Source of the DNA: a virus
DNA: 51,005 nucleotides
Virus record (IMG/VR): IMGVR_UViG_3300045051_000371
Coordinates: 1-51,005 of that record
Reading direction: 5' to 3' (one strand)
Positions 2,426 to 51,005 of this stretch are shown here, in pieces; positions within the stretch are counted from its first letter, which is position 1, and each line of letters starts with the position of its first letter. The notes under the pieces were generated by a model. It was not told the DNA's origin. It did not search any database and saw only the letters and a program-made list of their open reading frames with translations. Made by a program: the position numbers and the translations under genes.

Positions 2426-2441
2426 TGGCATGAGAATTGCT
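2426..2441 (+). promoter_or_regulatory. Sigma-54 type -24/-12 promoter upstream of the terminase-portal-scaffold operon
   Basis: cCTGGCATGagaaTTGCTa has GG and GC at the canonical spacing. It lies about 85 nt upstream of the small terminase ATG (2525), in an intergenic region. Confidence 0.7.
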
Positions 2442-2524
2442 AGAAGGATATCTATGAATTACTCGCAAGAAGCAGAAGATGCCTGCCGGGATAGTGATCT
2501 CTGGTGGGAAGTCTAGAAGAGCCT

Positions 2525-4421: not shown

Positions 4422-6247
4422 AACAAGCCCTGGCAGAGATGCCAGTGGAATTGAAGGCTGCACCAGCAGAAGCCTTGACAATTGACTTCGCTGCACCGAA
4501 ACTCCATGCGCTGTTGACAGACTGGAAAACTGTCGAGGATCGTATTACAGAAGGACGAGCTAATCGTGTCAAGGACATTAACATTGAAGCACTGCGAAGC
4601 AGCAACCAGTTGCTCGCAGATGAAATGTATTTGCCGGTTAATGTTGTCGACACAAACATCCAGCGTGCTAAGCCGGCATATCTTCAGTATCTTATCGGTC
4701 CGGTGAATCTTGTATTCTTCACGGATCCCGAGGATCTTGGAGACTCTTTTGAGGATGTTGCGACAGCTTTCAATACGCTCATTAAATACACCAACTGGGA
4801 AGAACCACATCTCCGCGCGATTGACTGTGCAATCAGTCACTTCTGTGGAGCAGTTGAAGTGTTGTTTGACAAGAATGCTCCCGGCCGAGTTAGTGTGGAA
4901 TACGTGGCCCTCAACGATCTAATCATTCCACTTAACACTGAATACCTGCATCAGCAACTCTATGTGATGCGCCGCTACCGTTGGACAAACGTGGCTCTTA
5001 AGCGCAACGCTAAGGAGTTTGGCTTTGATCCGGCGACAACGGATAAGATTCTGGAAGAATTCAAGGAGCGTGTTGATACGGCAGATGTCTACAAGGTCTA
5101 TATCCGGGAACCAGAAGGACTCTATATTGCTTGGTGGAGTGATAAATGTGGCAAGGAGTGGTTGAGGGAACCAGTTCCGTTTGATATCGGACTTGGCGGT
5201 ATCGAGACACAACTTCCGATTATTCCATTGCTTGCAGACCTACTGGAAGATTCTAAAGTTCTTGCGGGACGTGGTGAATGTGAGAAGTCCAAGCACACTC
5301 AGACGTGTGTTAGTGGTCTAGAGAGCAGCCTCATTAACCAAACAATGAGGGCCTCTAACCCTGTCTTCTCGCCGGAGAACATGGATACGGCTGCTCAAGA
5401 GCCTATCGTGATGAAGGCTGGAACAATTTCCAAGACCGCATTGAAGATGCACAAGATTGATCCGCCGGATCCGAATCTCTTCAGTCTTGCAGAGCGTATT
5501 CGGTCGCAGAATCTTGATGAGCGGGGTCAGGTTAACTATGCGGTGAATAACAGAACGGACTCTCGCAAGACCGCAACAGAAGTCATGTCGGCCGACGCAC
5601 AAGCTGTTAAGCTTCAGAGTGTGTCGGTGCTGAATCTTGCAAACTATCTCCGAGGAGTTTACACCTATGCGTGGCGCATCGTTAAACACTACGCTTTGCG
5701 TAACGAGATCTTCTTGCTCGGAACAAGGGATGACTACGGGAACATCCACAATGATCTGTCGCGCATTGATCGCAACTTCCTGATCACACCCACTGGAGGT
5801 AGTGAGCAGGCGCGGATGAATGATGTTAAGTTGGGAATGGAGAAGATCTTCCCGTTGGTCCGTGGCACTGCGCTGGAGAAGGTGATGATTAGCGATTATC
5901 TCCGATATGCACTGCCGACGCTGGGAACTAAATATCAGCGGATCTACAAGACTAGCATCATCGCGCAGGATCTCACGCTACAGATCCAACAGGGAATCAT
6001 TGAGCGGATCATGCAAGGCACACCGGATCCTACAGGGAACATCATGGTCCCGTTCACGCAACAAGAACTACAGCAATTCCAACAAACATTCCAACAATAT
6101 CAGCAAATCTATGGAGTTCTCGGAGATACCAGAGGCAGCATTGGCCCAGTGGAGGGAATGCCAGGCGACCCAGATTCTGCTACAGAAACTGCAACCGGAG
6201 ATAGCGAAGCTATTCCAATGCAAATCGGATCCGAGCCTATTGCGTGA
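4400..6247 (+). CDS. Portal protein
   Basis: 615 aa, directly after terL and before the scaffold and capsid genes, with an acidic C-terminus. Confidence 0.7.
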   Translation: MESTELLEQALAEMPVELKAAPAEALTIDFAAPKLHALLTDWKTVEDRITEGRANRVKDINIEALRSSNQLLADEMYLPVNVVDTNIQRAKPAYLQYLIGPVNLVFFTDPEDLGDSFEDVATAFNTLIKYTNWEEPHLRAIDCAISHFCGAVEVLFDKNAPGRVSVEYVALNDLIIPLNTEYLHQQLYVMRRYRWTNVALKRNAKEFGFDPATTDKILEEFKERVDTADVYKVYIREPEGLYIAWWSDKCGKEWLREPVPFDIGLGGIETQLPIIPLLADLLEDSKVLAGRGECEKSKHTQTCVSGLESSLINQTMRASNPVFSPENMDTAAQEPIVMKAGTISKTALKMHKIDPPDPNLFSLAERIRSQNLDERGQVNYAVNNRTDSRKTATEVMSADAQAVKLQSVSVLNLANYLRGVYTYAWRIVKHYALRNEIFLLGTRDDYGNIHNDLSRIDRNFLITPTGGSEQARMNDVKLGMEKIFPLVRGTALEKVMISDYLRYALPTLGTKYQRIYKTSIIAQDLTLQIQQGIIERIMQGTPDPTGNIMVPFTQQELQQFQQTFQQYQQIYGVLGDTRGSIGPVEGMPGDPDSATETATGDSEAIPMQIGSEPIA

Positions 6248-6306
6248 TAAAGTGGTAGAGATTGAAATTTTGCAGAAAGTTAGAAACCTGATCAGAAAAG
6301 GAAAAT

Positions 6307-7377
6307 ATGAACTCAACTGAAGATACGAACATTATGGTTGATCTTAGCGGATTGGAAGAGGGTGAAGTGGTGCAAACAGCTGCACCGGTTACCACACCTG
6401 AGGCTCCTAAGGTAGAGGCTAAGGCTGAAGCTCCCAAGGCGGAGACTCCTGAAGCTCCGGCGGCTGAAGAGCCTGCTAATGTAGAAGTTAGCACTCCCGC
6501 TGAACCTGCGGCAGAAGCTACTCCCACAGACGACACAGAACCCCAGTTTACCGAAGCTGAACAGAAGGTTCTCAAGCAGATGTCTCCTTATGCCCGAGAC
6601 TTTGCCATTGCCCGAGTCAAGGAACTACAGAAGGAGCGGGCGGAGCGTATTAAATTGGTGGATGAAGTCAAGACCTTGCGCGAGCAAAAGGAAGCTGCGC
6701 GTAGCAATGTCTATGAATCCGAGAATGCCTATGTGCTAAATCCTGAATATCAGGAAGCAGCCATGGCAGTTAATAACTACAAGAAGGCCGCCCGCCACTA
6801 TGAGAACCAGAAGGCTCTAGCTATTGATGGCGATCCGGTTACATTCATCACGGGAGTTGATGAAGAAGGAGAACTCACATTCTCCGAACCAATGAAACCT
6901 ACCGGCAAGGTGATTGCTACTCTTGACCGGGAAACGCTGAAGATTGCCCGTGGATACGATAAAGCGCAGGGAGTAGTGTCTCGTATCTCAACTGAACACT
7001 CGACCAATCACGGGAAGTTCCGTGAACGAGTTAACGCTATGTCTTCCGCGATGATCCCTCAATGGGATGCCATCACGAAGGCTAATCCCGCGGCCGCAAC
7101 AAGCCACAAGGCCACCCTCGATACACTAACCAAGATGGGCTTTGATCCCCAAGTCTCGCCACTTGTCGATACCGTGGCCCGCCTGTATGCTGTTGCGGAG
7201 CTTCTCGGCACCAAACTGGAAGCTGCCAACAAGTCACTGGCGTCCGCGAAGAGTGTTAACTCTGTCGCCAAGGTAGTGGGTCCCACCAACGGACAGCATG
7301 TTGATGCCGGTGGACGAGTCGCTAAATCCCGGCCGGGATATGTTGAGATCACTCCCGAAGAAGAAGCACGCTATTAA
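6307..7377 (+). CDS. Scaffolding protein
   Basis: Lies between the portal and capsid genes. It has a Pro/Glu/Ala-rich acidic N-terminus and a predicted helical, charged body. Confidence 0.6.
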   Translation: MNSTEDTNIMVDLSGLEEGEVVQTAAPVTTPEAPKVEAKAEAPKAETPEAPAAEEPANVEVSTPAEPAAEATPTDDTEPQFTEAEQKVLKQMSPYARDFAIARVKELQKERAERIKLVDEVKTLREQKEAARSNVYESENAYVLNPEYQEAAMAVNNYKKAARHYENQKALAIDGDPVTFITGVDEEGELTFSEPMKPTGKVIATLDRETLKIARGYDKAQGVVSRISTEHSTNHGKFRERVNAMSSAMIPQWDAITKANPAAATSHKATLDTLTKMGFDPQVSPLVDTVARLYAVAELLGTKLEAANKSLASAKSVNSVAKVVGPTNGQHVDAGGRVAKSRPGYVEITPEEEARY

Positions 7378-7407
7378 ATCTCTCAAAGCAACCCGCGCAC
7401 AATAACG

Positions 7408-7437
7408 AACGGGGCTGGATACTACTCCAGTCCCGTT
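7408..7437 (+). terminator. Hairpin after the scaffold gene
   Basis: aacggggctgga-tactac-tccagtcccgtt forms a 12-bp stem with one G-U pair, 30 nt after the stop. The T tract is weak. Confidence 0.5.
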
Positions 7438-7639
7438 CCCTTTACCATCGCTTGTAGCCCGTTCATAATCCATCGCTTCGGGCATTTGTTCCACGGCTGG
7501 TGGACTGGCCGTAGCGTTCCCGAGACGCGAGTGCGCGCAGCGAGCCGAAGGCGAGCGAGCCACGAGCGGCGAGGAATAGCACGCTATCCCGCTCCGGGCC
7601 TTCATATTCGCCGCGCAGCGGCGAGAACACTAATGAACT

Positions 7640-7655
7640 TGGCACGCATCTTGCT
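7640..7655 (+). promoter_or_regulatory. Sigma-54 type -24/-12 promoter upstream of the major capsid gene
   Basis: tTGGCACGcatcTTGCTt matches the extended consensus TGGCACG-N4-TTGCW exactly. It is intergenic, about 115 nt upstream of the capsid ATG (7768). Confidence 0.75.
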
Positions 7656-7767
7656 TACATAACATTGCCTCGCACACGCTGGAAGGGCATCCAGTTTTGG
7701 TTTGGTAGGTTATTCTAAACCTCCTAGTGAACAATGGTTGTTCATTAAACTAACTAAAACTCTACAC

Positions 7768-9039
7768 ATGCCACAGCCGTTTAACGCAATTGACGTGACG
7801 TATGGACATACGCCACAAGCCGAAGTGCAGTTTTCCAAACTGCCTTATATTCTCGCCAAGAAAGAACTGAAGTCCTGGAAGTCTACCCCGCTTGTTCGTA
7901 AACTTCTCGGTAAAGCCAAGTGGCAGCCGAATGAAGGTGCTACTGTGATGCGCACGGAGTATTCTACTCCTTCGCCCATTCAGCGGCAGATGCCGAAGCC
8001 GAACAAGATGTTCCAATCGGAGCCTAGCTTCGATGTTATTGGAACTCGTCGCTTCTACAATGAAGCCACTCCGGGCTGGAAGGGTTTCCACAGTGCTGAG
8101 TTCTACTGGCAGAACTCATTCGTTGAGAAGTTCCCTGATTCTATCAAGGATGCTTTCGACGACATCATGAATAAGGAGAAGATTTATGATGAAACCTATC
8201 TTCTGTCTGAACTCTACTTCCAAGCTCCGCGTGTTTATATCGCCGGGCAAGGATTTACCTCTGTTAAGCCGTCGTCTGCAATGGACCAGACGGTGAAGAC
8301 TGCTGAATGGGTTCAGGCTCAAGTTGTTGGCAAGGCTCGTGAAGCTCAGATCACTGACTTCATGCAGATTGCCTCTCAAATGCACGACAACGAGGGTATT
8401 CCTTTCTTCCAAGGTAAGGACTACGACGAAGGTTCTCCTGCTCCTGGCGGCACTTTTGCTCTTCTGTGCTCCACTGAGTTCATGCTTAATCTGACGTTTG
8501 ATCAGTATCTCAATCAGAATCGCATGCTCAATACTGATCTCGTTGGTGATGTCTGGAAGAAGACTCCCTTCGGGATGTATACGTGGAAGACTTGGCGTAA
8601 TCCGTTCCGTTTCCAGATTGATGGCACCACTGTTGCGCCGGAGATCACTGAGTCCGCCGCGGATGCGTTCAATCTCAACGAGACTGTTCCTAATCCGCTC
8701 TACACCAGCATGTTGAATGATGGCTCTCCTTACGAGGTTGCCATTATTCTCGGTCCTAACGCTGGTGATGCGCTGGAAGTTGGTCCGCCTCCTTCTGAGT
8801 TCACTAACTCCAGTGTCAGCTCCAAGATCACCGCTATCGACTGGAACGGTAAGATCAAGATGAATGATCTTTTTCTCGTTCCGACGGTTGGTGATGATGG
8901 TGTTGCCACTGTTGCCATCAATCCGATGGGCTTGCGTCGTCGTTATGAGTCTCTGCTCTCTGTTGGCTATGTTCCCCGCCAACGTCGTGCTGTGACTCTT
9001 TACTTCTACAAGCGCAAACTCGGTCCCGCCGTTGTGTAA
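7768..9039 (+). CDS. Major capsid protein
   Basis: 423 aa from the ATG at 7768, directly after the scaffold gene, with strongly biased codon usage. Function is assigned from position and size only. Confidence 0.65.
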   Translation: MPQPFNAIDVTYGHTPQAEVQFSKLPYILAKKELKSWKSTPLVRKLLGKAKWQPNEGATVMRTEYSTPSPIQRQMPKPNKMFQSEPSFDVIGTRRFYNEATPGWKGFHSAEFYWQNSFVEKFPDSIKDAFDDIMNKEKIYDETYLLSELYFQAPRVYIAGQGFTSVKPSSAMDQTVKTAEWVQAQVVGKAREAQITDFMQIASQMHDNEGIPFFQGKDYDEGSPAPGGTFALLCSTEFMLNLTFDQYLNQNRMLNTDLVGDVWKKTPFGMYTWKTWRNPFRFQIDGTTVAPEITESAADAFNLNETVPNPLYTSMLNDGSPYEVAIILGPNAGDALEVGPPPSEFTNSSVSSKITAIDWNGKIKMNDLFLVPTVGDDGVATVAINPMGLRRRYESLLSVGYVPRQRRAVTLYFYKRKLGPAVV

Positions 9040-17908: not shown

Positions 17909-18742
17909 ATGGCTTCTTATCATGAAGTTTCTCCAGCAGAACTTGCTGGCTATACGGTTTCTTCACTTCCTAAGGTTCTTGAGGCTTATACTAAAGCCAT
18001 CCAGCCTTATGATCGTGCGATGCTTGATGCAGCTAGGGTTATTGATCCGCAGAAAGCTCAACACGAATACGATCTCTCTGCTCGTTTCAGTCCGTTGTAT
18101 AACCAGCTGACCAACGATCTACAAGATCAAAACACTGAACTGGGTGCTCGTCGGGAACTTAACACACTCCGCGGAACCGGACGAGATCTTGTCAGTGAGG
18201 CAGTTAAACTTGATGAACTTGCCAATCCAGAGTTCTATGCCACACGTCGTCACTCTAGTGCTCTGTTTAATCAGCTCCTTGATTCTGTTAATCCTAACGG
18301 CCTGACTCCTACTGAGTCTGCTGAGATTGAACGTGGCCTTGCGCGCACTGGAGAACTTCCCGGATCACAGTCTTGGAAACATGCCCAGACTTTTGGCAAT
18401 GCGTTGAACGCTAAGAAGGATCGTCTTGCTTCACTGCTTTCCATGGCTCCTTCCATGCTAAGTTCCAAGACTCAAATTGATCCTTTTCAAGTTGGCACGG
18501 GACGTGCTGGTGTCAGTGCTGCGCCAGTGACCAATTTTAACCCTAGTGGCTATAACAATTCTTCTGCTATTGCAGGGATTGGTAATCAACTTGCAGGACA
18601 GATTGGTTCACAGGTTCAGGCTAATCAAGCTAATGCGCTGGCCCAACAGAACTCTAATCGCCAAAACGCCCTTGGTTGGGCTGGCATTGGTGTTAGCGGT
18701 TTGAATGTTCTCAACAAGACCTTCCCCGGTTACTCCGGCTAA
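17909..18742 (+). CDS. Internal virion protein candidate
   Basis: Position, plus a Gln/Asn/Gly-rich C-terminus. Confidence 0.4.
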   Translation: MASYHEVSPAELAGYTVSSLPKVLEAYTKAIQPYDRAMLDAARVIDPQKAQHEYDLSARFSPLYNQLTNDLQDQNTELGARRELNTLRGTGRDLVSEAVKLDELANPEFYATRRHSSALFNQLLDSVNPNGLTPTESAEIERGLARTGELPGSQSWKHAQTFGNALNAKKDRLASLLSMAPSMLSSKTQIDPFQVGTGRAGVSAAPVTNFNPSGYNNSSAIAGIGNQLAGQIGSQVQANQANALAQQNSNRQNALGWAGIGVSGLNVLNKTFPGYSG

Positions 18743-26988: not shown

Positions 26989-28268
26989 TTCGTCTCAAAC
27001 TCCTTCAAGTAAGTTCCAATCTCATAGACATTCAGGTTGCACTTAGTATCCATTCGATTGGTCAATTTCATTTCTCCCGTTTCAGCACGAAACATTCGTG
27101 CCTTGCGTAACTTAATCATAGATCTCAAAGTCTCTACAAACTCCCGTGCGTTGACAGATTCCAACACTGCTTTGTAAAGTTCAGTGATCTCATAGTCAGC
27201 GTTGTTCAGCAGATCTTCAATCAACTCATGGATCGGGAACAACTCATTGCGTGGCTTTGTGCTGAGTGCTAAATCCATGGTTTTTTCAATAGACTCCAAG
27301 GCTGCGAAAGCTTGTTTGACGTGCGTAATATGGATAGGATGGCTGAGATCTGGACACTGTGAAAGACACACAATACCCGCTAACTTCTGGACGTGAACAC
27401 GTTTACGCTCATAGTAATCAAGCAACTTCGGCGAGCGATTAAGACGCTTCGTGTCGGACTCATGTTCATACCAGTATTTAACATACTCCCGCGCATCATC
27501 AGTGTATCGAAGTGGACCGACGAGACGTGTGAGTTTTGCGATGTGAGCCATTAAACGATGCTTTGCTTCAAGCATCTCTTTGGTCACCGCAGGTCCGTTG
27601 AAATTACGCTTCTTTGGTGTGGCTTCGTAGATGAACCAGGTTCTTGCACCGAGACCTTCGTTGAAGATCTTCTTTTCATAGCAGTCGTAGATGAAAGCTG
27701 GTTGAGCGGCAGAGAGGAGATTCAGGCAGCCGTTGTGGATAGTCTCTTTGCCGCGTTTCTCAGTCATGCCTTGGTAGAGACCGCTATCGTAGATTACTGT
27801 CAGGAACCTGGCAACTTCACGGGGATCCATTCCGGAGGGAAACAGCGCAGAGAACTCCGTCAGTGCAAGCGCGAGGCTGGCATGATGATAAAGACCTCCG
27901 TTGTAATGCTCAATGTTTCCCAGCTTAGACATCAGCTTAACCAACGAGACCTTTGAAGTATTATCAGGTCCTGTCGGAATAGCAAGCTCCTCATTCTCGG
28001 GATACTTACTAAGCGTGTCGTCAGTATTAAGCTCGCCATTCTTCCCAATCCGAAACAAAATATCTCTAACACGATCAATGACTGCGGATTTACCAACGCC
28101 AGGTCCAGCAACGTATGTTGTGTAGGTATTGAGATATAGCCTACTCTCATCGTTTGCTAACCATACTTTTCGCCCGACAGCGGACGATACAAGTGAATAG
28201 AATCCAAAGTCCTTGAATGAATCAGGACTCTCAAGATTCTTGTTGTATTCATCCCAGTCTTGTTTCAT
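26985..28268 (-). CDS. P-loop NTPase, putative replicative helicase or primase-associated ATPase
   Basis: Walker A YVAGPGVGKS, 427 aa, directly upstream of the polymerase genes. Confidence 0.5.
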   Translation of the reverse strand: MKQDWDEYNKNLESPDSFKDFGFYSLVSSAVGRKVWLANDESRLYLNTYTTYVAGPGVGKSAVIDRVRDILFRIGKNGELNTDDTLSKYPENEELAIPTGPDNTSKVSLVKLMSKLGNIEHYNGGLYHHASLALALTEFSALFPSGMDPREVARFLTVIYDSGLYQGMTEKRGKETIHNGCLNLLSAAQPAFIYDCYEKKIFNEGLGARTWFIYEATPKKRNFNGPAVTKEMLEAKHRLMAHIAKLTRLVGPLRYTDDAREYVKYWYEHESDTKRLNRSPKLLDYYERKRVHVQKLAGIVCLSQCPDLSHPIHITHVKQAFAALESIEKTMDLALSTKPRNELFPIHELIEDLLNNADYEITELYKAVLESVNAREFVETLRSMIKLRKARMFRAETGEMKLTNRMDTKCNLNVYEIGTYLKEFETK

Positions 28269-29287
28269 TTTTCTACCAAGCCTCCAGGGTTTTTATCTTT
28301 ATGCCAAGGTCCCCAATTGTCGCCGATCATGCCGCTACTAAGCATTTGAAACTCTTCACCACGTGAAGAAACGAGGTGTGCTTCAATAGCAGGTTTCATA
28401 ACTTCTTCATTCGCTTGCACAGCTTCATCTTCGGGACAGTTTAAAGCAAAGCTGTCGTGACAGTTATTGAAGATTGTCCAATCGAGACGTTCCTTCTGGA
28501 TCCGGGACCACACTATCTCCACCGCTCGATGTGTAATCTCTGCTACTGTGCTTTGTGGATTTGCAGCGTAGATATCCTTGATGCTGTGGCGAACCCGGGG
28601 CGTGAATCGCATCGGATGGCCGAACAGATTATACACAACATCACCATTCTGACGAAATTCACGCAAGACACGTGGTTGCCAGTCGTTGAAAATCTCAGGA
28701 AAGAGTTCATTTTTGTAGGTATTGACATCATGTTGAGCTTCCTCGTAGGAGAGCCAGAGCATTCCGCCGGATCGCTTGAGACAGGTGTCACGATAGATGG
28801 AAGCCTCAGCATCATAGTTAAGACTATGGCACATCGTCTTCCCGTTGAAGTAATAGCGTGCTCCATGTTCCCAGTTGTCACTGTCGGCGATGATTGCAAC
28901 AAGCTCTTTCCAGTAGGAGAGAGATTTCAGTTTCTCGATCGGTGTGCTGGCGGCTTCAAGGAATTGCTCTGCACGCTCTGGGATACGCTTGGCAAATTCA
29001 TGCTTATAACGTCGCAGTGCAACAAAACAATGCGGCTTGATGCCCAACTTGAACAGCTTGCGGAAGTTACCATCCGGAGCTTCCCAAGCAACAATACGTG
29101 CATCAGCACCACTTTGATCTCGCTGAACAATCTTGCGACCCTTGCCAGCAACTACAATGCAACGCTTGCTCTTCTCCCAGTTTTGCATTGAGCGACCAGT
29201 GCCAAAAGGTCCACGCGAGAATAGCTTCCCCTGAGACAGGCGAAACATCTTCTGCGAAGCTATCTTACAGCTGGCTGTTATGAGCAT
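28265..29287 (-). CDS. Family A DNA polymerase, C-terminal fragment (fingers/palm)
   Basis: GTGRSMQNW (compare TGRLSSxxPNLQN), motif A DQSGADARIVA, motif B GKTMCHSLNYD, motif C NCHDSF. Confidence 0.75.
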   Translation of the reverse strand: MLITASCKIASQKMFRLSQGKLFSRGPFGTGRSMQNWEKSKRCIVVAGKGRKIVQRDQSGADARIVAWEAPDGNFRKLFKLGIKPHCFVALRRYKHEFAKRIPERAEQFLEAASTPIEKLKSLSYWKELVAIIADSDNWEHGARYYFNGKTMCHSLNYDAEASIYRDTCLKRSGGMLWLSYEEAQHDVNTYKNELFPEIFNDWQPRVLREFRQNGDVVYNLFGHPMRFTPRVRHSIKDIYAANPQSTVAEITHRAVEIVWSRIQKERLDWTIFNNCHDSFALNCPEDEAVQANEEVMKPAIEAHLVSSRGEEFQMLSSGMIGDNWGPWHKDKNPGGLVEK

Positions 29288-29451
29288 ACAACAGAATATA
29301 CTTTACTTCCAAACACAAACATACACCGTTCGCCAGGCTTCATGATCTTAAGTGCATGTTGCTTCAACTCGTCAACATTGTCACCAAGTAATGTTGCGTA
29401 GCGAATCTTACCTGTCTCAGCAATAGTGCTGATTACGCACTGAGTTTGCAT
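29278..29451 (-). CDS. 57-aa ORF bridging the two polymerase fragments
   Basis: ATG at 29451 and TAA at 29278, found by hand translation (MQTQCVISTIAETGKIRY...). It overlaps the ends of both pol ORFs in a third frame. Confidence 0.35.
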   Translation of the reverse strand: MQTQCVISTIAETGKIRYATLLGDNVDELKQHALKIMKPGERCMFVFGSKVYSVVCS

Positions 29452-31028
29452 TGTTCTTTGCTCCAGGTTCTGTAGTTACGGTAGTAAGGTTTCAACTTGA
29501 GATCACTTGCAGCTTTAGCTTGCTCCCGATAGGCGAGAGTAAGCAGAAGAATTGGATGTGGACCAATCTTCAAGGCAAGTTTGTAGAATTCGTTCTCACC
29601 GAGTTTAGGTGCTCCGGCCGGAGTGTATTTCACTGCCGGATGCTTTTGCACACTGTGGAAATATTTAGAGAGCTGGGCCGGAGACGAGACAAGGCGAGCT
29701 TTGGAACCTTTACCAGCTACCATAGCTTTAATCTCTGGTCCAATCAACAGCTCCGCCACACGTGCATAAAGATTTGCACGATCATCGCAACGTTTTTGCA
29801 TTGTGATACGACGTTCATCGTCAACTTCGCAACCATTCAACGTCATATCCATATATGCACGCGCAGCAGCACAGGCATGTTCAATGGATTTCTTTAGTCC
29901 CTTGCGGGTTTCAGCATAGGCTAGTTGTTTCTGCTTGATTAGACGCATCAAGGAAACATCCTTACCGCAGTAATGCTTCAGTCGATACTCTTGATCGTGA
30001 TTGACAGGATTGTAAACACCGTCATTCTTGTGGTATGGCTCGAAAGTCCACAGTGAACCGCAATGACCAAGGGAACGCTCAAGCAACGGATAGCAACGAT
30101 GCTGGGCGATCATTGTATCGTATAGCTTTTTAGGTGCTGCGGGAAAACCGTAACGCCAGATCATTGCGGGACAGTCGAAGGTATCACCGTTGTGCATGAT
30201 AACACAATCTGCACGACGGATGGCGAGTGTGAGTTCCAGTAAGATACGGAAACCGTCAGGTCGCATGACATCGTTATAATCAACAACACTCGTTACATAC
30301 ACAGGACCCTCTTCACCACACCAAGCGAAACAGCGTATGGATAAATCCGTAGCAGTCTCAATGTCAAAGTAGAAATTCCCCGTATGCGCCCGCAACTTCT
30401 CACAAGGATTGTCAAGCATGATGATCTCGGTTTGATCCAAGGGCATCTTATGCTTGAGAAGGAAGGCAACTTTGCGACTATCGAACTCTAGCCAGGACTT
30501 AAAGTTTTGACGGGAAGTCTTACCGTGGTGAGATTTCTCATCCTCGAAAGTATCTTCAGCATCTTTGTCGTAGGCTTCACTGTCATCATCCGAGACCTCA
30601 TCAGGAGTGTTGTTTTCCTGGAACTTCTTCTCGTGATTCTTGCTGTCGAAACAATCCTGCGGGGTGTAGGATGATACTGCAACGACGTGAGTTAGCTGAA
30701 TCGGCGAGCCACGCTGTTCTCCGAGCGTGGAGAGTGTGCCCATGAAGGTGGTTTGCGCCTTCTGACCGAGACAGAAGATAACACGTGTTCCTTCACGGAG
30801 TGGGCTACGATCATCAGCGATACGAACTTCGCAGGCGTAGAAGTTAATATCAGCCTTGGCAAGACACTCTGTGCTGAACCACTTACCCGCAACGGAAGTG
30901 AGGATCTTGGGTTTATTTTCCTGTGCGGATTGGATAGTGTCGAAGCGGGACGGAGAAGACAAAATGATCGTCAGTCCATTATAGGGAAGACGGGGATTGA
31001 TGCGATATTGTGCCGGCTCAAAGTTCAT
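29433..31028 (-). CDS. Family A DNA polymerase, N-terminal fragment (3'-5' exonuclease plus thumb)
   Basis: ExoI FDIET, ExoII HNGDTFDCP, ExoIII YCGKDV, then a thumb-like LAYREQAKAAS. It ends with TAA. Confidence 0.75.
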   Translation of the reverse strand: MNFEPAQYRINPRLPYNGLTIILSSPSRFDTIQSAQENKPKILTSVAGKWFSTECLAKADINFYACEVRIADDRSPLREGTRVIFCLGQKAQTTFMGTLSTLGEQRGSPIQLTHVVAVSSYTPQDCFDSKNHEKKFQENNTPDEVSDDDSEAYDKDAEDTFEDEKSHHGKTSRQNFKSWLEFDSRKVAFLLKHKMPLDQTEIIMLDNPCEKLRAHTGNFYFDIETATDLSIRCFAWCGEEGPVYVTSVVDYNDVMRPDGFRILLELTLAIRRADCVIMHNGDTFDCPAMIWRYGFPAAPKKLYDTMIAQHRCYPLLERSLGHCGSLWTFEPYHKNDGVYNPVNHDQEYRLKHYCGKDVSLMRLIKQKQLAYAETRKGLKKSIEHACAAARAYMDMTLNGCEVDDERRITMQKRCDDRANLYARVAELLIGPEIKAMVAGKGSKARLVSSPAQLSKYFHSVQKHPAVKYTPAGAPKLGENEFYKLALKIGPHPILLLTLAYREQAKAASDLKLKPYYRNYRTWSKEQCKLSA

Positions 31029-34725: not shown

Positions 34726-34964
34726 ATATCTAGCTTATCAAGCTTATCAAGCATTGCTTTAATTTTACTACGATCAGCTGGCGGACGAGTAGGAGGCGCA
34801 TGGCGTTTTGGTTTAGATTCTCGTGTGGTGCTCTCTGGACTTCCACGGATCAATCTAACTTCTGGCAGGAGATCTTTGAACATATCCATCAAGGTCTCAT
34901 CACTCTCATTCAGCAATGCAATGATCTTCTCGTCATCAAGATTGGTTAATTCATCTATTGTCAT
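34722..34964 (-). CDS. Small hypothetical protein
   Basis: ORF track, ATGA-coupled. Confidence 0.45.
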   Translation of the reverse strand: MTIDELTNLDDEKIIALLNESDETLMDMFKDLLPEVRLIRGSPESTTRESKPKRHAPPTRPPADRSKIKAMLDKLDKLDI

Positions 34965-35602
34965 AGATCAAGATGCAGCGTAACTTCCATACCCTTCAGA
35001 CCTTTAACTGCAATGCCGGGATATTTTAGGATAAAGGTTTGCAACTTTGTATAGTCAGTCAGGCTGTGCAGTTTAATTGTCAATTCACCGATGTCACCTT
35101 CTCGCTTCATCCATTCAACAATCTGTAGTTGCCAGTTGAGTTCTGTCATCATCGGCGAGGCAACGGACAACACACGGTTTTTACGTTGAACCTTAACATC
35201 ACCGCCACGCTTGGCGAAGCTGTAGAGTTCTTCCCACTCAGAGTATTTTCCGGTAGGATCTAGATTCTCGACCAGATACGCAAGACCGTGACGGAAATAC
35301 TGAATAGCTGATGAAGCGGTTAGGCGTGTGGGAAGAATCTCATCTTCAACACCACGATCAATAATGTCTCTAACTTCAACCGCTGCCCGGTGACAGTAGT
35401 ATTCTCCACGAATACAAGTAAACCGGGACTTCTCAGGTTGTCGAATGTAACCGTCAGCTTCGATAATAATCTTGCGAAGACGCTCCTGGAGATCACAGAG
35501 CTGGTTGTCGATCTTCTCTTTTGTCGCTGGATCAGAGACTACCTTTCGACTCTTGATAAGAGCGGCTGCGGTTGATTGGATTTCTTTGTAAGCAGGAATC
35601 AT
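34961..35602 (-). CDS. Hypothetical protein immediately downstream of the sigma-54 activator
   Basis: ORF track, 213 aa, no recognisable motif. Confidence 0.5.
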   Translation of the reverse strand: MIPAYKEIQSTAAALIKSRKVVSDPATKEKIDNQLCDLQERLRKIIIEADGYIRQPEKSRFTCIRGEYYCHRAAVEVRDIIDRGVEDEILPTRLTASSAIQYFRHGLAYLVENLDPTGKYSEWEELYSFAKRGGDVKVQRKNRVLSVASPMMTELNWQLQIVEWMKREGDIGELTIKLHSLTDYTKLQTFILKYPGIAVKGLKGMEVTLHLDL

Positions 35603-35620
35603 GCCAGTGGGGGAAGAGTA

Positions 35621-36556
35621 TTAAAGTGCATCAAGTTTCATGCGTTCACCAAGTGCAATTAGTGAGCGGACGTTGTGGCGAAGATCGCCACGTGTAAGTA
35701 GTGGTGGCAATGGATACTCGAAGCCAGGATAAAGCTCTGACCAAATAAGTTTTGCATCAGCAGGTCGTTCAATCAGATGCTTGATACGGAACTCAAATAT
35801 ACTAATACGAGCATGGAAGTCTTCACGTGTTGGAGTTCCTTGCGACGCACAAACAATGCGACAGTTGGAGATTTCATCAACACCGCCAATGCGTCTAATC
35901 CAACAGCGGCCATCGGAGTCTGGTTGTAGCGCCCGAAGCATCTTGGCTTGGAGATAATCAGGAAGGTCAAACACTTCATCAAGGAACAAAGTTCCACCGA
36001 ATGCTTGTTGGAATACACCATCTTTGCGGTTGTCTGCGCCTGTAAATGCACCTTTCTCGTAACCGAACAATTCAGTTTCCAACAGTGTCGCTGGAATCGC
36101 TGCACAGTTAAGTGCAACAAAAGGTCCTTGTCGCCAAGGTCCATGCAAGGCGCGAGCAAGCAGTTCCTTGCCAACACCCGTAGGTCCACGAAGTAGAACA
36201 GTGTGATCAGTGTAAGCCAGCTTGCGGATGCAACGACAGGTGTCCAGTGTATCAGGGTCTTGTGTGTAAAAAGATTCCAGTCCATTGTAATACTCAGTAT
36301 GCTTAGGTGGCATCCGGCACACTACACGACCTGCATCAGCAACTAAAGGCTCAGCCAAAGATTCTGCTGCCTCGATACGACCTTTAAGATCTTGATACCG
36401 GAACTTAACATTGTTGGGAGTCTTTGCACGTTTGGGATCTACGATTATATGCTTCCATCGCTCCTCAGCCTTTGCATTACGATCCATTGCCCGCATAAAG
36501 ATCTCGACATTCTTAGGATCATGGATGTCGGTAATTTCAATAGTTGAATCACTCAT
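35621..36556 (-). CDS. Sigma-54-dependent transcriptional activator (bEBP AAA+ domain) without an HTH domain
   Basis: LLRGPTGVGKELLARALH, FVALNCAAIP, ETELFGYEKGAFTGA, GGTLFLDEV, QAKMLRALQ and HNVRSLI, collinear with the NtrC central domain. The protein ends right after sensor II. Confidence 0.85.
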   Translation of the reverse strand: MSDSTIEITDIHDPKNVEIFMRAMDRNAKAEERWKHIIVDPKRAKTPNNVKFRYQDLKGRIEAAESLAEPLVADAGRVVCRMPPKHTEYYNGLESFYTQDPDTLDTCRCIRKLAYTDHTVLLRGPTGVGKELLARALHGPWRQGPFVALNCAAIPATLLETELFGYEKGAFTGADNRKDGVFQQAFGGTLFLDEVFDLPDYLQAKMLRALQPDSDGRCWIRRIGGVDEISNCRIVCASQGTPTREDFHARISIFEFRIKHLIERPADAKLIWSELYPGFEYPLPPLLTRGDLRHNVRSLIALGERMKLDAL

Positions 36557-39798: not shown

Positions 39799-39887
39799 TG
39801 TGATTTATTTAGGAAGTAAAGCATCAGGCCAACAATACATATAGCTGTCACTGAAGCAATCAGGTCATTAATATTTTCAGGCGTCAT
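39795..39887 (-). CDS. 30-aa transmembrane micropeptide (MTPENINDLI...), paralog of 48248..48334
   Basis: Found by hand translation, with ATGA overlaps on both sides and one TM segment. Confidence 0.45.
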   Translation of the reverse strand: MTPENINDLIASVTAICIVGLMLYFLNKSQ

Positions 39888-40054
39888 AGCGTTTTCATTA
39901 TGCAACTACTACACCAATAGTGCAACGTGGTTTCTTTTGCACCTTTCTTTGGTGTGGAGAATCGTGGAACAAAGCGACCACATTGGTGGCAGCGGGGTTT
40001 ACGTTTGGATAAGACAGGAATTATGCAGCCAGACTTAGGGAGTATCAGTATCAT
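39884..40054 (-). CDS. Small Zn-ribbon-like protein
   Basis: CHQCG...CSSC. I took the internal ATG at 40054. Confidence 0.4.
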   Translation of the reverse strand: MILILPKSGCIIPVLSKRKPRCHQCGRFVPRFSTPKKGAKETTLHYWCSSCIMKTL

Positions 40055-40298
40055 CTTTACTCTCCTCTCTGCTGAGACTGACAGATCCCCACAATCCGAA
40101 GACAAACAACTGAAGTCCAGCAGCCAGCATTACATAATCAAATCGAAAGATAAAAGCTAGATAGAGGTGTGTGATTACCCATCCTAGAAACATTGTGCCA
40201 AAAGCAGTTGATAAGCTTTCTGAGATTTTAGATTTCATAAAAGAAATGTTGCCTGTTGTAGAGTTTATAAATAGTATCGACAGGCGGCTGATACCCAA
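40035..40298 (-). CDS. Small membrane protein
   Basis: Two hydrophobic segments and an acidic C-terminal tail. Confidence 0.45.
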   Translation of the reverse strand: MGISRLSILFINSTTGNISFMKSKISESLSTAFGTMFLGWVITHLYLAFIFRFDYVMLAAGLQLFVFGLWGSVSLSREESKDDTDTP

Positions 40299-40481
40299 TG
40301 AAAGGCGCTGCTAGTCAATCATGTAAACCTAGCAGACTCACAGGGAGAGCTCTACTACTCGTTGAAATTTCTAAGACCCTAGCCAACCGGCTAGTGATTA
40401 CGACATCGTGTCAACTTAGTTTACCACTCGTTAACGTCATTAGAGTGGTGAAAACTACGCGGAGAGTATTACCCCTCCGCG

Positions 40482-40575
40482 TTCTCCGTGTAGGAATCGA
40501 ACCTACCTAGGACACTGCTCAACCACGACAGCGCCTGCCGGCCGTCGCCGGTGATTACCAAGTATCAGACGGAGG
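40482..40575 (-). ncRNA. tRNA-like element with T arm, D arm and acceptor pairing but no anticodon arm
   Basis: The minus strand reads GTAGG-TTCGATT-CCTAC (40506..40490). The acceptor pairs CCTCCGT/ACGGAGA at 6 of 7 positions. The D arm is TGAT-acttGGta-ATCA. The middle folds as CCGGC-gacg-GCCGG instead of an anticodon stem-loop. Confidence 0.3.
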
Positions 40576-40708
40576 AAATTGTTTGAGTGTTATAGCAGAA
40601 CTTGCACATGTATTCTGCTACTTGATTCATTCGCATGAACACCATGAACTGCAATTCTTTGTAGACTTTACATTTAATACATTCATAAACCTTGATGGTT
40701 GCTTTCAT
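40565..40708 (-). CDS. Small Zn-ribbon protein
   Basis: CIKC...CKFC. I took the ATG at 40708. Its 3' end abuts the tRNA-like element. Confidence 0.4.
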   Translation of the reverse strand: MKATIKVYECIKCKVYKELQFMVFMRMNQVAEYMCKFCYNTQTISSV

Positions 40709-40783
40709 TATGCTCTTGATTGTAGGGAGTAGTTGTTCTCCCCACAAGAAAGAGCACAAGGTGTTACCCCTGTGCCTTGATTG

Positions 40784-41413
40784 TTACGCCGCCTTCGGCT
40801 TACGGCGACGGGACTCAATGTCCGCAACGAGCGAAGTCTTCTGCACCTTGAGAACGCGCAACGCAGTGCGCTCTTCATCGGACAGAACATCCTTCACAGT
40901 ATATTCCATACCGGTGGCAGGATTGATGTCACCATTGAAGACAGGCTGCAACTTGGGCTCAAAGCCAGCGAGTTCCTTCTCGATAGCCTCAAGCGCCTCA
41001 GTCATATCCTTAATAGACGCACCCGCATCATCACGCAGCCACTTCTCCAGGGCCTTGGCAGCGATCTCTTCATCCAATCCTTCCTTCTCAGTAGTAGCAG
41101 CGCGAGTGCATTTGTTACCAGCCATGCGGAAGTCAGCATCCAGCACGCTGAGAACATTAGCCTCACCGCCATAGACCTGAATGTAATCCGCCAGCTTCCA
41201 GCCATTGCGATCAATCTGGACGGTCAACGGATAAACTTCAACTTCCTTGCGAACGATGTTGCCGTGAGCATCAAGCTGCGGCTGACCACTGGCATCGAGG
41301 ACATTGACAGGCTCCTTCACAGCACGCAGTGCCTTGGCGAGAACGATCTTGATTTCACGGGGACCAGACTGAGTGTCAAGGTTGAACGAACGAACGAGCT
41401 TATTGGTTTCCAT
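40784..41413 (-). CDS. Hypothetical protein with a basic C-terminal tail
   Basis: 209 aa, preceded by a 60-nt A-rich leader, ending RRRKPKAA. Confidence 0.55.
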   Translation of the reverse strand: METNKLVRSFNLDTQSGPREIKIVLAKALRAVKEPVNVLDASGQPQLDAHGNIVRKEVEVYPLTVQIDRNGWKLADYIQVYGGEANVLSVLDADFRMAGNKCTRAATTEKEGLDEEIAAKALEKWLRDDAGASIKDMTEALEAIEKELAGFEPKLQPVFNGDINPATGMEYTVKDVLSDEERTALRVLKVQKTSLVADIESRRRKPKAA

Positions 41414-41473: not shown

Positions 41474-41836
41474 CTATCCAAGGTCGGGAAGATACACTAC
41501 ATTACCGGGAAGATCGTTGGTCAATTCGAGCTTCGATGGATCTATACCAGCAAGTCCCGTGCCAACTGGTGTAAGAAGAAAGCACGTATCTGGATTAGCA
41601 CGTGCGTAATATTTGAATGCACGCAATGATTCATTGATCACATCAGGATCTAGTGAGCATAGCCGGGAGTCTTTCGTCGGAATGGCATAGCTATTACCCT
41701 GTCTTCCATTGCCTATTCCTTTCACCGCACCGAAGTGTGTTCGTGCAAAGAGCGCAGCACCTGCTCCGTGATAGCCGGCAAGGTTAGAACCAAAGACGAA
41801 GACGTAACGTGACGGGAGTGATTTGGTGAGGATCAT
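41474..41836 (-). CDS. Conserved phage protein with FVFGSNLAGxHGAGAA / SYAIPTK motifs (Rossmann-like; function unknown)
   Basis: I recall this motif pair from a widespread phage and bacterial family. I cannot name the family with certainty. Confidence 0.5.
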   Translation of the reverse strand: MILTKSLPSRYVFVFGSNLAGYHGAGAALFARTHFGAVKGIGNGRQGNSYAIPTKDSRLCSLDPDVINESLRAFKYYARANPDTCFLLTPVGTGLAGIDPSKLELTNDLPGNVVYLPDLG

Positions 41837-48589: not shown

Positions 48590-48903
48590 TGAGTATTCCT
48601 TTCCAATTCCATTTTCTTAAACCAAGGATCAAGAAGAATTTTCAGTGGTGTCAGTTGTTTCCAGAAAGCAAGGTATTGTTCGAGTTCGTCGACTTCGTTA
48701 AGTTGCTCACGAATAACTTGCTTGCTCCAGCGCCTTTCAGCACGGATGGTGTGGCGCTTGAAGTCTGCGCTGTGATCACAACAGGGACAGCGATTGGCTT
48801 TCTTGATGACGCACTGAGTCTTGCGACGGCAGGCATGAAACCTGTTGACCATTTGCCAAGGACTACCGATGCAGTCGGGGATGATTTCACCGATGGTTTT
48901 CAT
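48586..48903 (-). CDS. Cys/His-rich small protein
   Basis: HACRRKTQC...CPCCDH. Confidence 0.45.
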   Translation of the reverse strand: MKTIGEIIPDCIGSPWQMVNRFHACRRKTQCVIKKANRCPCCDHSADFKRHTIRAERRWSKQVIREQLNEVDELEQYLAFWKQLTPLKILLDPWFKKMELERNTQ

Positions 48904-49499
48904 GTTAAACGCATTGATTCAGTGGTGTAATCAGGATAATCACGACGTTCATATTCATCGTAACATGATTGAATATCGTGACGAATGTTTTCTAGTGGAT
49001 CCGTATCGTTAAAGTTTCTTTCAATTTCTCGCTTAATGTCTTCAAGAAACATGTTACGAGACATTGTAATGAAAGTTTGTCGACATTCTTCTTGCTCTTC
49101 CCAAAGCAGAAACATTTGGTCGATTTCTTCAGGGATAGAAAGGATGTCTTCAGCTTCAATAGCTTCTTTTTCAAGCTCCCGCTTCAGCGCCTTGCGTAAG
49201 CGACGGGAAGACATCTTCTTGAATCGGTGATGATACTCACCGAAGTTCTCCATCACACTGAGCCCCGTGATATCTTTGCCGCACAGACGGATAGGACGAC
49301 GGGTTTGTGGAGAATTCACTGGACGATAGAAAGCGGTAGCCTTATAGCAAGGCTCATGCCAACCGAAGTAGTGTTCGCCACTTCGGGAAACTATAGTGTG
49401 CGTAGGCTTGCCGATGCTGGATACGAGTTTACATGCTTCGCTAGAGTGAAACCAGAAGATGGAATCACGGCGGGGGCAAAGCTGTGCGAGAGTTTTCAT
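48900..49499 (-). CDS. Hypothetical protein
   Basis: ORF track, 199 aa. Confidence 0.5.
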   Translation of the reverse strand: MKTLAQLCPRRDSIFWFHSSEACKLVSSIGKPTHTIVSRSGEHYFGWHEPCYKATAFYRPVNSPQTRRPIRLCGKDITGLSVMENFGEYHHRFKKMSSRRLRKALKRELEKEAIEAEDILSIPEEIDQMFLLWEEQEECRQTFITMSRNMFLEDIKREIERNFNDTDPLENIRHDIQSCYDEYERRDYPDYTTESMRLT

Positions 49500-50798: not shown

Positions 50799-50809
50799 AA
50801 CCAAATGCA

Positions 50810-50842
50810 GAATCCCCACACCTTACTGGGGTGTAGGGATTC
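50810..50842 (-). other. 13-bp hairpin 12 nt upstream of the ATG at 50798
   Basis: gaatccccacacc / ggtgtagggattc with one mismatch. It could be a leader structure or an attenuator. Confidence 0.35.
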
Positions 50843-50878
50843 TGTGTTAATTATGTGTGGTTAGGAGATTCGGAGATT

Positions 50879-51005
50879 CACGTGGTCGGAGATTTGCCTG
50901 TCTACTATTCACGTGGTCTGGGGAGTCGTAGATCAAGATATTCGCTGATTCACGTGGTCTGGGGAATGATCTTAACAACTAGTTCATCGCTTGTCTACGA
51001 TTCAC
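50879..51005. repeat. Terminal direct repeat, copy 2 (identical to 1..127)
   Basis: Exact 127-nt identity with the start of the window. Confidence 0.9.

Follow-up and report, generated by a model that had tools for sequence, protein, structure and literature searches.

How could a phage use a sigma-54 activator that has neither a recognisable DNA-binding domain nor a recognisable sensor? This question is raised by the IMG/VR virus record IMGVR_UViG_3300045051_000371, analysed here over its full 51,005 nucleotides (the window), and by a gene on its minus strand whose 311-aa product (the activator; Table 1) resembles the AAA+ core of the bacterial enhancer-binding proteins (bEBPs), which activate the RNA polymerase holoenzyme containing sigma-54 (E-sigma54). 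The activator lacks the helix-turn-helix (HTH) domain usual in such proteins, and from sequence comparisons we consider it likely that it acts together with the host's E-sigma54 to switch on the phage's own -24/-12 promoters. The molecular parts of such a system are known and its viral role is undescribed; full-text literature searches returned no description of a phage-encoded bEBP.

The activator protein

A first-pass annotation, made from the DNA letters, had taken the 311-aa protein for an NtrC-type central domain with no Fis-type HTH at its C-terminus and no receiver, GAF or PAS motif at its N-terminus, and profile searches agreed on each point. Pfam family PF00158 (Sigma54_activat) matched aa 99–241 with E=2.8e-42 (144.7 bits against a cut-off of 20.2), and no match to HTH_8, Response_reg, GAF or PAS was obtained at E<=1. 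The motifs quoted in that annotation (FVALNCAAIP, QAKMLRALQ, RRIGG...CRIVCAS and HNVRSLI, besides Walker A, Walker B and GAFTGA) are all in the translation in the order given. The NCBIfam models for NtrC, NifA, NorR, PrpR, RtcR, FlgR and PspF matched the protein through their central domains only, all far under the equivalog cut-offs.

We aligned the activator with five orthologues, E. coli PspF and the PEP-CTERM-box regulator PrsR. Walker A (GxxGxGKE; K130/E131), the glutamate-switch residue N150, Walker B (D193/E194), R244, R250 and R297 were invariant. The GAFTGA loop aligned with GAFTGA of PspF and GAYTGA of PrsR, with G169, T172, G173 and A174 invariant. The PspF AAA+ domain could be aligned with the activator along its entire length with all catalytic residues conserved, and the arginine fingers R244 and R250 correspond to R162 and R168 in PspF numbering. 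The activator and its orthologues end about 10 residues past the sensor-II helix, where PspF and PrsR go on into the HTH. At its start the AAA+ domain carries FYTQD, the signature of the virus family described below, in the place of LIGxSxxM in cellular bEBPs. In an AlphaFold (AF2) model the predicted local distance difference test score (pLDDT) was 74 overall and 80–94 in the AAA+ part, and the best Foldseek matches of the model were solved bEBP AAA+ domains, namely NtrC4, FleQ, FlrC, NtrC1 and PspF (E ~1e-17).

The profile match, GAFTGA loop, catalytic residues and AAA+ fold that characterise bEBPs as a PF00158 clade of AAA+ proteins are therefore all present, and what is absent, the C-terminal HTH and an N-terminal regulatory domain (REC, GAF, PAS, V4R or PRD), is typical of bEBPs but not universal. 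Judged by its sequence, the activator is a bEBP AAA+ domain with its full catalytic set and with neither an HTH nor a known sensor, and it is predicted to activate E-sigma54 in an ATP-dependent manner. Its automatic name at the Joint Genome Institute (JGI; database record P0001), 'transcriptional regulator with PAS, ATPase and Fis domain', is wrong for two of its three parts because the protein has no PAS domain and no Fis-type HTH. The matching PHROGs family, phrog_7998, is labelled 'unknown function'.

The N-terminal region (aa 1–95) is an orphan. Its second half, aa 56–95 (ADAxRVxCxxPPKH), is conserved in all orthologues, and no Pfam match was found for aa 1–98, no match of the family profile among PDB sequences, and no convincing alignment with the PrsR receiver domain. 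Searched against 1.84 billion representative proteins, the N-terminal profile retrieved family members only, including a new short one, P0123. The structure prediction that the first-pass annotation had proposed for this region assigned no fold: pLDDT was below 50 for aa 1–52, two helices (54–66 and 70–79) were moderately confident, and the region modelled alone reached a pLDDT of 55, which is unusable for a fold search. The N-terminus is neutral to acidic in all orthologues (isoelectric point, pI, 5.6–7.8), which makes a DNA-binding role weakly less likely. The earlier statement that the protein has no DNA-binding domain thus holds for recognisable domains and is too broad as a general claim, since the 95-aa N-terminus fits no fold.

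Sigma-54-type promoters in the window

The genome has two divergent arms. Plus-strand genes from ~100 to 25,480 encode terminase-, portal-, capsid- and tail-sized proteins that match almost nothing known, and the minus-strand arm, from 50,819 down to ~25,575, encodes a DEAD/ResIII-type helicase, the activator, a Sak4-like annealase, a dUTPase, a split family-A DNA polymerase and a primase. The activator had been placed in an early/replication arm, and the helicase, Sak4, dUTPase, split polymerase and primase genes do lie in the same arm. It had also been said that the phage has no RNA polymerase or sigma factor of its own, and we detected no domain of either kind among the ~50 phage proteins scanned.

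The exact pattern TGGCAC-N5-TTGCW occurs twice in the window against 0.076 expected (2/500 shuffles), and TGGCAYG-N4-TTGCT occurs four times against 0.02 expected (0/500 shuffles). Since the latter pattern had been refined after the data were seen, we built an independent position matrix from 68 unique sites of other viral contigs, leaving out the window and its 86% relative. This matrix found exactly six window sites of at least 16 bits, where 0.2 were expected, and none between 12 and 16 bits. The direction of each site agrees with that of the genes in its arm, and all six have GG and GC elements exactly 10 nt apart within the TGGCAC-N5-TTGCW framework, two of them as exact matches. Below, the sites are named by their first coordinate (Table 1).

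The terminase/portal operon (2504–7377) is preceded by 480 bp of AT-rich intergenic DNA with P2426 at its end, and P7640 lies within a 390-bp gap ahead of a 423-aa capsid-like gene. These are the two sites that the first-pass annotation had picked out as late promoters; both are present, intergenic and ahead of the terminase and capsid-like operons, but the set was incomplete: the window has six sites, of which 35591, 41549 and 49346 share the strand of the activator. P18493, the weakest, is upstream of 459-aa and 1783-aa tail-region genes. P35591 begins 14 nt past the activator stop codon and leads into the recombination/replication module, and P41549 lies in the 3' end of ORF (open reading frame) 41474–41836, preceding a 209-aa gene. 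P41549 and the 209-aa gene form a compact transcription unit, as a terminator-like hairpin directly follows the gene. Another hairpin, after the 356-aa gene, looks like a terminator that would set the terminase/portal unit apart from the P7640 unit.

The six elements can also be grouped as three pairs, one member per arm, that share flanks beyond the sigma-54 consensus. P2426 and P35591 (2400–2441 and 35591–35632) have ~26 nt of upstream flank in common, TTAATA..CTCCCCCAC; P18493 and P41549 (18488–18511 and 41546–41569) are identical at 22/23 nt, AGT...GGT, and both code for VGTG(R/L)AG; and P7640 and P49346 (7625–7655 and 49346–49376) both have GAACACTA 15 nt upstream.

Table 1. Features of the window and capsid-gene gap sites of relatives (coordinates are window positions)
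Feature	Position	Strand	Basis or details
Sigma-54 activator (bEBP) gene, 311 aa, ATG start	35621..36556	-	ORF, PF00158, fold match, HTH-less relatives
N-terminal region, aa 1-95, orphan	36272..36556	-	no Pfam or PDB match, low pLDDT
AAA+ sigma-54 interaction domain, aa 96-311	35624..36271	-	alignments, Foldseek, signature comparison
Walker A GPTGVGKE, aa 124-131	36164..36187	-	alignment
GAFTGA L1 loop (sigma-54 contact motif), aa 169-174	36035..36052	-	alignment
Walker B TLFLDE, aa 189-194	35975..35992	-	alignment
Arginine fingers R244 and R250 (REDFHAR)	35807..35827	-	alignment with PspF FRADLLDRL
Sensor II arginine R297 (HNVRSL)	35666..35668	-	invariant in alignment
Predicted promoter TGGCATGAGAATTGCT	2426..2441	+	18.0 bits; predicted transcription start site (TSS) ~2452
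Predicted promoter TGGCACGCATCTTGCT, exact consensus	7640..7655	+	27.3 bits; predicted TSS ~7666
Weaker intragenic site TGGCACGGGACGTGCT	18493..18508	+	16.4 bits; inside ORF 17909-18742
Site TGGCATGATTCCTGCT	35591..35606	-	21.0 bits; predicted TSS ~35580
Predicted promoter TGGCACGGGACTTGCT, exact consensus	41549..41564	-	23.0 bits; predicted TSS ~41538
Intragenic site TGGCATGAGCCTTGCT	49346..49361	-	20.0 bits; inside early ORF 48900-49499
213-aa gene, directly downstream of activator	34961..35602	-	start codon within 35591 promoter element
209-aa gene	40784..41413	-	conserved sigma-54 promoter upstream
Terminator-like hairpin directly 3' of 209-aa gene	40753..40776	-	-16.3 kcal/mol, z = -4.4
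Terminator-like 13-bp hairpin after 356-aa gene	7407..7438	+	-24.4 kcal/mol, z = -6.1
423-aa conserved virion-module protein, putative major capsid protein	7768..9039	+	size and position only
Holin, PF16079	11870-12271	+	Pfam
133-aa Tad2-like (Thoeris anti-defence 2) protein, PF11195	42015-42416	-	E=2.5e-6, above curated cut-off
Capsid-gene gap site, L008, TGGCACGCAAGCTGCT			60% protein identity
Capsid-gene gap site, L007, TGGCACGCCCCCTGCT			49% protein identity
Capsid-gene gap site, L011, TGGCATGAAACCTGCT			31% protein identity
Capsid-gene gap site, L009, TGGCACGCTTCTTGCT			27% protein identity
Capsid-gene gap site, L010, TGGCACACTTCCTGCT			26% protein identity

Conservation of the promoters in relatives

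Among 5.8 billion proteins we found five clusters of full-length orthologues of the activator (86, 84, 61, 48 and 48% identity; 299–311 aa), none with an HTH, and a sixth, shorter relative, P0123 (275 aa), with a GSFTGA loop. All seven family clusters, the activator's included, are 275–311 aa long and end right after the AAA+ lid, and the contigs of three orthologues have syntenic early arms.

Equivalents of window sites occur in related contigs (numbered L001 onwards). The 2426 site is identical in L005/L006, and L009 has an analogous site upstream of its terminase-side operon and another facing the first gene of the opposite arm. Equivalents of the 35591 site occupy the same junction in L001 (10908–10923), L002 (6288–6303) and L013 (~1575–1590). 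The site ahead of the 209-aa gene is TGGCACGGGCCTTGCT in L001, inside the same upstream gene and therefore coding, and TGGCACAGATCCTGCT in L002, where it is intergenic; because it follows a different, unrelated gene there, protein-coding constraint cannot explain its presence.

Homologues of the capsid-like protein led to contigs of seven lineages. In five of them (L007–L011), with protein identities down to 26%, the gap ahead of the capsid-like gene keeps the site (Table 1) while the remaining gap DNA is unalignable; given a chance of ~2e-3 per gap, five of five such sites are not a matter of chance. The promoters thus keep their orthologous positions while their flanks diverge. The 5' leader of the capsid-like gene also contains a hairpin with a conserved loop, A(A/G)GGCA (window 7678–7695, plus strand), which recurs in L008 (367–384), L007 (3832–3851), L010 (3380–3393) and L011 (2374–2387). 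Its stability is unremarkable (z = -0.3), and its stems covary across the five lineages (GCTGGA/TCCAGT, GTTGGA/TCCAAC, CGTAGAA/TTCTACG, GCGA/TCGC and TCGC/GCGA), which suggests an RNA element that a protein or the ribosome binds.

Coupling of gene and promoter in a wider viral family

A scan of IMG/VR with the family alignment returned at least 254 viral contigs encoding relatives of the activator; locus-level counts below refer to the best 80 of these matches, with sites counted within +/-10 kb. Short relatives of 242–310 aa were found at 51 of the 80 loci, many of them on contigs of 45–60 kb. Only 150–165 residues follow their loop (GAFTGA, GSFTGA, GSYTGA or GSYSGA) to the C-terminus, which leaves no room for an HTH. 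Those of 242–260 aa have nothing besides the AAA+ domain, their Walker A falling at residue 31–52, and the viral representatives inspected have F[IY]TxD or a near variant at the LIGxSxxM-type position.

At the 51 short-bEBP loci we counted 90 consensus sites (<=1 mismatch) against 22 expected, a ratio that overstates the independence of the evidence and to that extent weakens it, because many of the loci are near-duplicates and the count over 20 clusters given below is safer. Of these sites, 78/90 fall outside same-strand ORFs and 72/90 are on the activator's strand. By contrast, 10 consensus sites against 17 expected were counted at the 24 loci whose bEBPs are long (>=420 aa); these bEBPs probably belong to hosts and come from prophage or misbinned contigs. 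The pair of gene and promoter, a survey of which in metagenomic phages had been suggested in the first-pass annotation, therefore recurs, with a roughly four-fold site enrichment at short-bEBP loci only.

When the short viral bEBPs were grouped at 60% identity, 12 of the 20 resulting clusters had a site with at most one mismatch within 700 nt past the stop codon, mostly at 18–62 nt, where ~0.01 is expected per locus. Another four clusters had a two-mismatch site of the TGGCATG...CTGCT type within 35 nt of the stop codon. By this comparison the 35591 site of the window is a conserved element placed after viral bEBP genes. Homologues of the window's 303-aa gene recur 1.2–2 kb downstream of the activator in eight clusters, so the module entered from the promoter behind the activator is a conserved one for recombination and replication.

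The viral consensus is TTGGCACG-N4-TTGCT with fixed GG-N10-GC spacing, and one example, TGGCACGATTCTTGCT, recurs in several clusters. This viral consensus is the textbook one for sigma-54. It is highly improbable that such motifs are read by a factor other than sigma-54, or that the AAA+ protein is non-transcriptional and matches the motifs by convergence: most of the phage's proteins are without annotation, which leaves room for an unrecognised factor, and some family members have divergent loops (GSYSGA and GSYTGA), but the consensus and its spacing are those of sigma-54 and the activator of the window has the canonical GAFTGA and every catalytic residue.

A different reading is that the activator mainly reprograms the host's sigma-54 regulon (nitrogen, envelope, RNA repair and so on), the phage sites being served by host bEBPs or being incidental. 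The architecture lends it something, as any sigma-54 promoter occupied in the cell should respond to an activator that is not targeted to DNA. YuA-type phages, moreover, use sigma-54 promoters without a PF00158 gene, according to PMC10914365 and to our tblastn matches, which include no Pseudomonas phage. We nevertheless consider this reading very unlikely, because gene and promoters travel together, with enrichment at short-viral-bEBP loci only and the promoter directly after the gene in most clusters, because promoters are kept ahead of virion genes down to 26% protein identity, and because host bEBPs need enhancers of their own, none of which is conserved here.

No member of the viral bEBP family was found among GenBank phages by tblastn with the activator and two short IMG/VR bEBPs. 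All three queries returned the same ~64 records, mostly labelled bacterial genomes or assemblies with ordinary regulator annotations. The matches within the GenBank phage collection (MT836026, AGRM01, AFYI01, CAKLQ*, OR85*) look like bacterial DNA, and several of these 'phage' records are labelled Salmonella genomes or annotated glnG, zraR or prpR. In MT836026, the one record inspected, the match is a 478-aa PAS-AAA-HTH regulator beside fumarase-like, transporter and metabolic genes. Among 185,579 GTDB species genomes, none of the 38 loci inspected from the best 80 matches (0/38) encodes the short viral type; these 38 bEBPs are of cellular or otherwise non-viral type, mostly 440–830 aa long, with receiver and HTH and with (I/L)(I/V)GxS-type motifs.

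From these sequence comparisons we have high confidence in the predicted pairing of the activator with the promoters, and the arrangement appears to be common in uncultured phages of ~45–60 kb. We lean towards the broader view that short (242–311 aa), HTH-less and sensor-less activators with a promoter after their gene represent a widespread, undescribed phage strategy and a large virus-specific family.

Proposed mechanism and its strength

In the mechanism that we propose, the activator would be made from the early (minus-strand) arm, presumably by host primary-sigma transcription, and would hexamerise as it accumulates. The hexamer would then use its GAFTGA loops and ATP hydrolysis to remodel closed complexes of host sigma-54 RNA polymerase already parked on the six near-consensus phage promoters. 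Opening of P35591 would turn on the recombination/replication module directly downstream of the activator, P41549 the stand-alone 209-aa gene, P2426 the terminase/portal operon, and P7640, perhaps reinforced by P18493, the capsid-like/lysis/tail operon. The activator would act while free in solution, or would contact the holoenzyme directly, and the timing of its synthesis would be its only control. Sigma-54 promoters have essentially no basal activity without an activator, and this silence would give the phage a tight and private switch from early to middle/late genes with no need to encode a sigma factor or polymerase. A late-gene switch through a host-sigma-54 activator had been proposed from the first reading; the sequence supports the idea, but its scope was too narrow, as the middle genes for recombination and replication are included.

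While we infer from sequence that the activator acts on the six promoters through host RpoN, we hold with moderate confidence that it would do so independently of enhancers. Action from solution is the most likely mode because there is no HTH, no regulatory domain was detected and there is no conserved upstream activating sequence, no 10-mer (<=1 mismatch) being common to the upstream DNA of the three best window promoters. Three further findings favour it: in the relatives, 17–90 nt separate the capsid-gene promoter from the stop codon or terminator before it; the DNA upstream of the 35591-type element of L013 has given way entirely to an inserted Zn-ribbon gene; and family members with Walker A at residue 31 (242 aa) are still paired with a promoter. 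In vitro, the HTH-less PspF fragment can activate strong sigma-54 promoters from solution, and the viral consensus, which is close to the strongest natural sigma-54 promoters, likewise favours enhancer-independence.

Several points weigh against this account. All of its support comes from sequence, and a host rpoN is assumed. An activator without a DNA-binding domain would fire host sigma-54 promoters too, so that action on the phage only cannot be claimed. Three of the sites (18493, 41549 and 49346) are inside ORFs, and P49346 and P41549 precede the activator gene on its strand, so that feedback may complicate the early-to-late picture. The 35591 site, in turn, overlaps the start codon of the 213-aa gene (ATG 35602). 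A transcript starting at ~35580 could not encode the 213-aa protein from the annotated ATG because it would begin 21 nt inside the ORF. This overlap is shared by the window, L001, L002 and L013, in all of which the ATG and the fourth codon (GCT) of the 213-aa ORF are parts of the -24 and -12 elements; the L002 activator is extended at its C-terminus by five residues (KKYMV), from whose codons the TGG of the promoter comes, and in L021 the equivalent promoter lies ahead of the 213-aa homologue in the normal way. Read-through transcripts may be the only source of the 213-aa protein, or E-sigma54 bound at the promoter may serve as a gate behind the activator gene.

Two more of these points concern DNA binding: the C-rich flank CTCCCCCAC directly upstream of the -24 element at 2426 and 35591 might be a proximal binding site, and in aa 1–95, which fit no fold, helices 54–66 and 70–79 could belong to a small DNA- or protein-binding module. 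The protein would then be a sigma-54 activator that does not act from solution, its N-terminus or a partner such as the 213-aa protein binding DNA near the promoters, for example at CTCCCCCAC, which would make it an unconventional enhancer-binding protein with a proximal site. We consider this unlikely. The conservation of aa 56–95 in all orthologues as two predicted helices fits it, as do the ~26-nt flank with CTCCCCCAC that is common to 2426 and 35591 and kept in L013, and the equal distance of GAACACTA from TGG at 7640 and 49346; yet the N-terminus is neutral to acidic and has neither an HTH match in Pfam nor a PDB match, the flanks vary between promoters and are not kept in relatives, and the AAA+-only members (242–260 aa) still co-occur with promoters.

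Comparison with known systems

Activation from solution, the reading that we prefer, has partial parallels among cellular bEBPs. In its architecture the activator is, by analogy, closest to FleT and to the laboratory fragment PspF(1-275). Like the activator, FleT of Cereibacter (Rhodobacter) sphaeroides has an AAA+ sigma-54 domain with no HTH and no recognisable sensory domain. It is a cellular flagellar regulator, whereas the activator is viral and belongs to a virus-specific family with F[IY]TxD in place of LIGxSxxM. FleT works together with the DNA-binding bEBP FleQ, and the phage, unlike the FleT system, encodes no partner bEBP. Because the activator carries a 95-aa orphan N-terminus, the AAA+-only form of FleT is seen fully just in the 242–260-aa IMG/VR relatives. 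FleT is described as the only known bEBP without both R (regulatory) and D (DNA-binding) domains (PMC7175178).

FlgR of Helicobacter/Campylobacter and CtcC of Chlamydia, group 5 bEBPs, were the analogues named in the first-pass annotation. The likeness holds for the missing C-terminal HTH: both are activators of the receiver-plus-AAA+ type without a D domain (PMC7175178), confirmed for CtcC (PMC7482065), and E-sigma54 activation by either is believed to need no enhancer (PMC7175178, PMC7482065). They differ in keeping a receiver domain controlled by a histidine kinase; the activator has no Response_reg match, and so lacks the receiver of group 5, and the phage encodes no kinase, which leaves FleT as the closer parallel. 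PspF and HrpR/HrpS share with the activator the lack of an N-terminal sensory domain, but in their natural form they have an HTH and bind enhancers, whereas the activator is naturally HTH-less. PspF is, in addition, restrained by PspA, whereas the phage protein has no evident anti-activator.

Host sigma-54 has a phage precedent. Ceyssens, in a 2008 study of Pseudomonas phage YuA, reportedly found that sigma-54 promoters serve the virion and lysis region and tested them in an rpoN mutant. According to a further source, which cites that study, YuA uses host sigma-54 and has a mapped sigma-54-like promoter, P015 (PMC10914365). Our tblastn search of Pseudomonas phage records found no PF00158-type protein, so YuA must rely on a host activator or on one yet to be identified; both phages would thus use the host sigma-54 holoenzyme for part of their transcription, the present one adding an activator of its own. 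The earlier remark that no phage late switch of this kind had been characterised therefore stands for the phage-encoded activator but not for the use of host sigma-54, for which YuA is a precedent (PMC10914365). T4 late transcription (sigma factor gp55, gp33 and clamp gp45) resembles the proposed switch as a temporal control in which a mobile, non-site-specific activator made by the phage turns on promoters inactive without it (PMC2988020). T4 encodes its own sigma-like factor and a DNA-loaded clamp activator, whereas the present phage would use host sigma-54 and an ATP-driven AAA+ remodeller; there is no homology between the two.

Other features of the phage genome

The window has an exact 127-bp direct repeat at its ends (1–127 = 50879–51005) and is therefore a complete circular genome of 50,878 bp and not a fragment. 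We considered a bacterial contig with a host regulator gene and rejected it, as the contig is circular, 50.9 kb long and divided into two divergent arms with phage hallmark genes. Megablast of the virion region and tblastn of the polymerase and the capsid-like protein gave no match in any GenBank phage, and thus no sign of relatedness to YuA/M6. The 423-aa capsid-like gene follows the portal-sized and 356-aa genes. Its product had no Pfam, PHROG or PDB sequence match and no relatives in IMG/VR by a peptide-pattern method, and its family was not found among the 185,579 GTDB species genomes scanned.

The family-A DNA polymerase appears to be split between two minus-strand ORFs of 531 aa and 340 aa (28265–29287 and 29433–31028 by position on the map), separated by a third of 57 aa, and the same split is found in the relative L002. 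The 133-aa Tad2-like protein is, by its Pfam match, a probable anti-defence gene of the early arm. At the junction of the divergent arms, an iteron-like repeat, ATTCACGTGGTC, occurs four times on the plus strand (at 50877, 30, 71 and 123; one copy ATTCACATGGTC) within ~135 bp, adjoined by a hairpin with a 15-bp stem at 50808–50844; these repeats could be origin or operator sites. No convincing gene lies in about 1 kb of the early arm (39799–40783, minus strand), where a tRNA-like T-arm, GTAGGTTCGATTCCTAC, is present near 40500 and, after it, a hairpin and T-run near 40450–40480. ARAGORN and Rfam found nothing in this region, which may represent an undescribed small RNA or what is left of a tRNA; ARAGORN found no tRNA gene and Rfam no match elsewhere in the window.

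A loose Shine-Dalgarno (SD) motif precedes just 4/38 genes, and the leaders are A-rich. The near absence of such motifs suggests an SD-poor host lineage, and our guess would be one that relies little on SD pairing and has rpoN, for example Bacteroidota. Matches to sigma-70-type promoters in the window were not above shuffle levels, and the Bacteroidota-type -33/-7 pattern showed no enrichment.

Implications

Known timing switches of phages comprise phage sigma factors, phage RNA polymerases, antiterminators, and activators or appropriators of sigma-70. A phage-borne AAA+ activator of host sigma-54 would add a distinct class to this list. If the proposal is correct, these proteins would be the first bEBPs known from viruses, and naturally occurring equivalents of the engineered, promiscuous activators without a DNA-binding domain. 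The host sigma-54 holoenzyme would then serve the phage as a private polymerase, held tightly off and flipped on for the middle and late programmes, and the near-zero basal activity of sigma-54 promoters would allow one small gene to act as a near-digital switch. As the family has no cultured representative in GenBank, a whole regulatory strategy would have been overlooked.

By the proposal, the host range of these phages, or resistance to them, should depend on rpoN. The family would also serve as a minimal model of how a bEBP reaches E-sigma54 when it is not tethered to DNA, and the viral bEBPs, as small natural activators that would need no enhancer, would with their matched strong promoters be candidate parts for orthogonal circuits and for mapping sigma-54 regulons.

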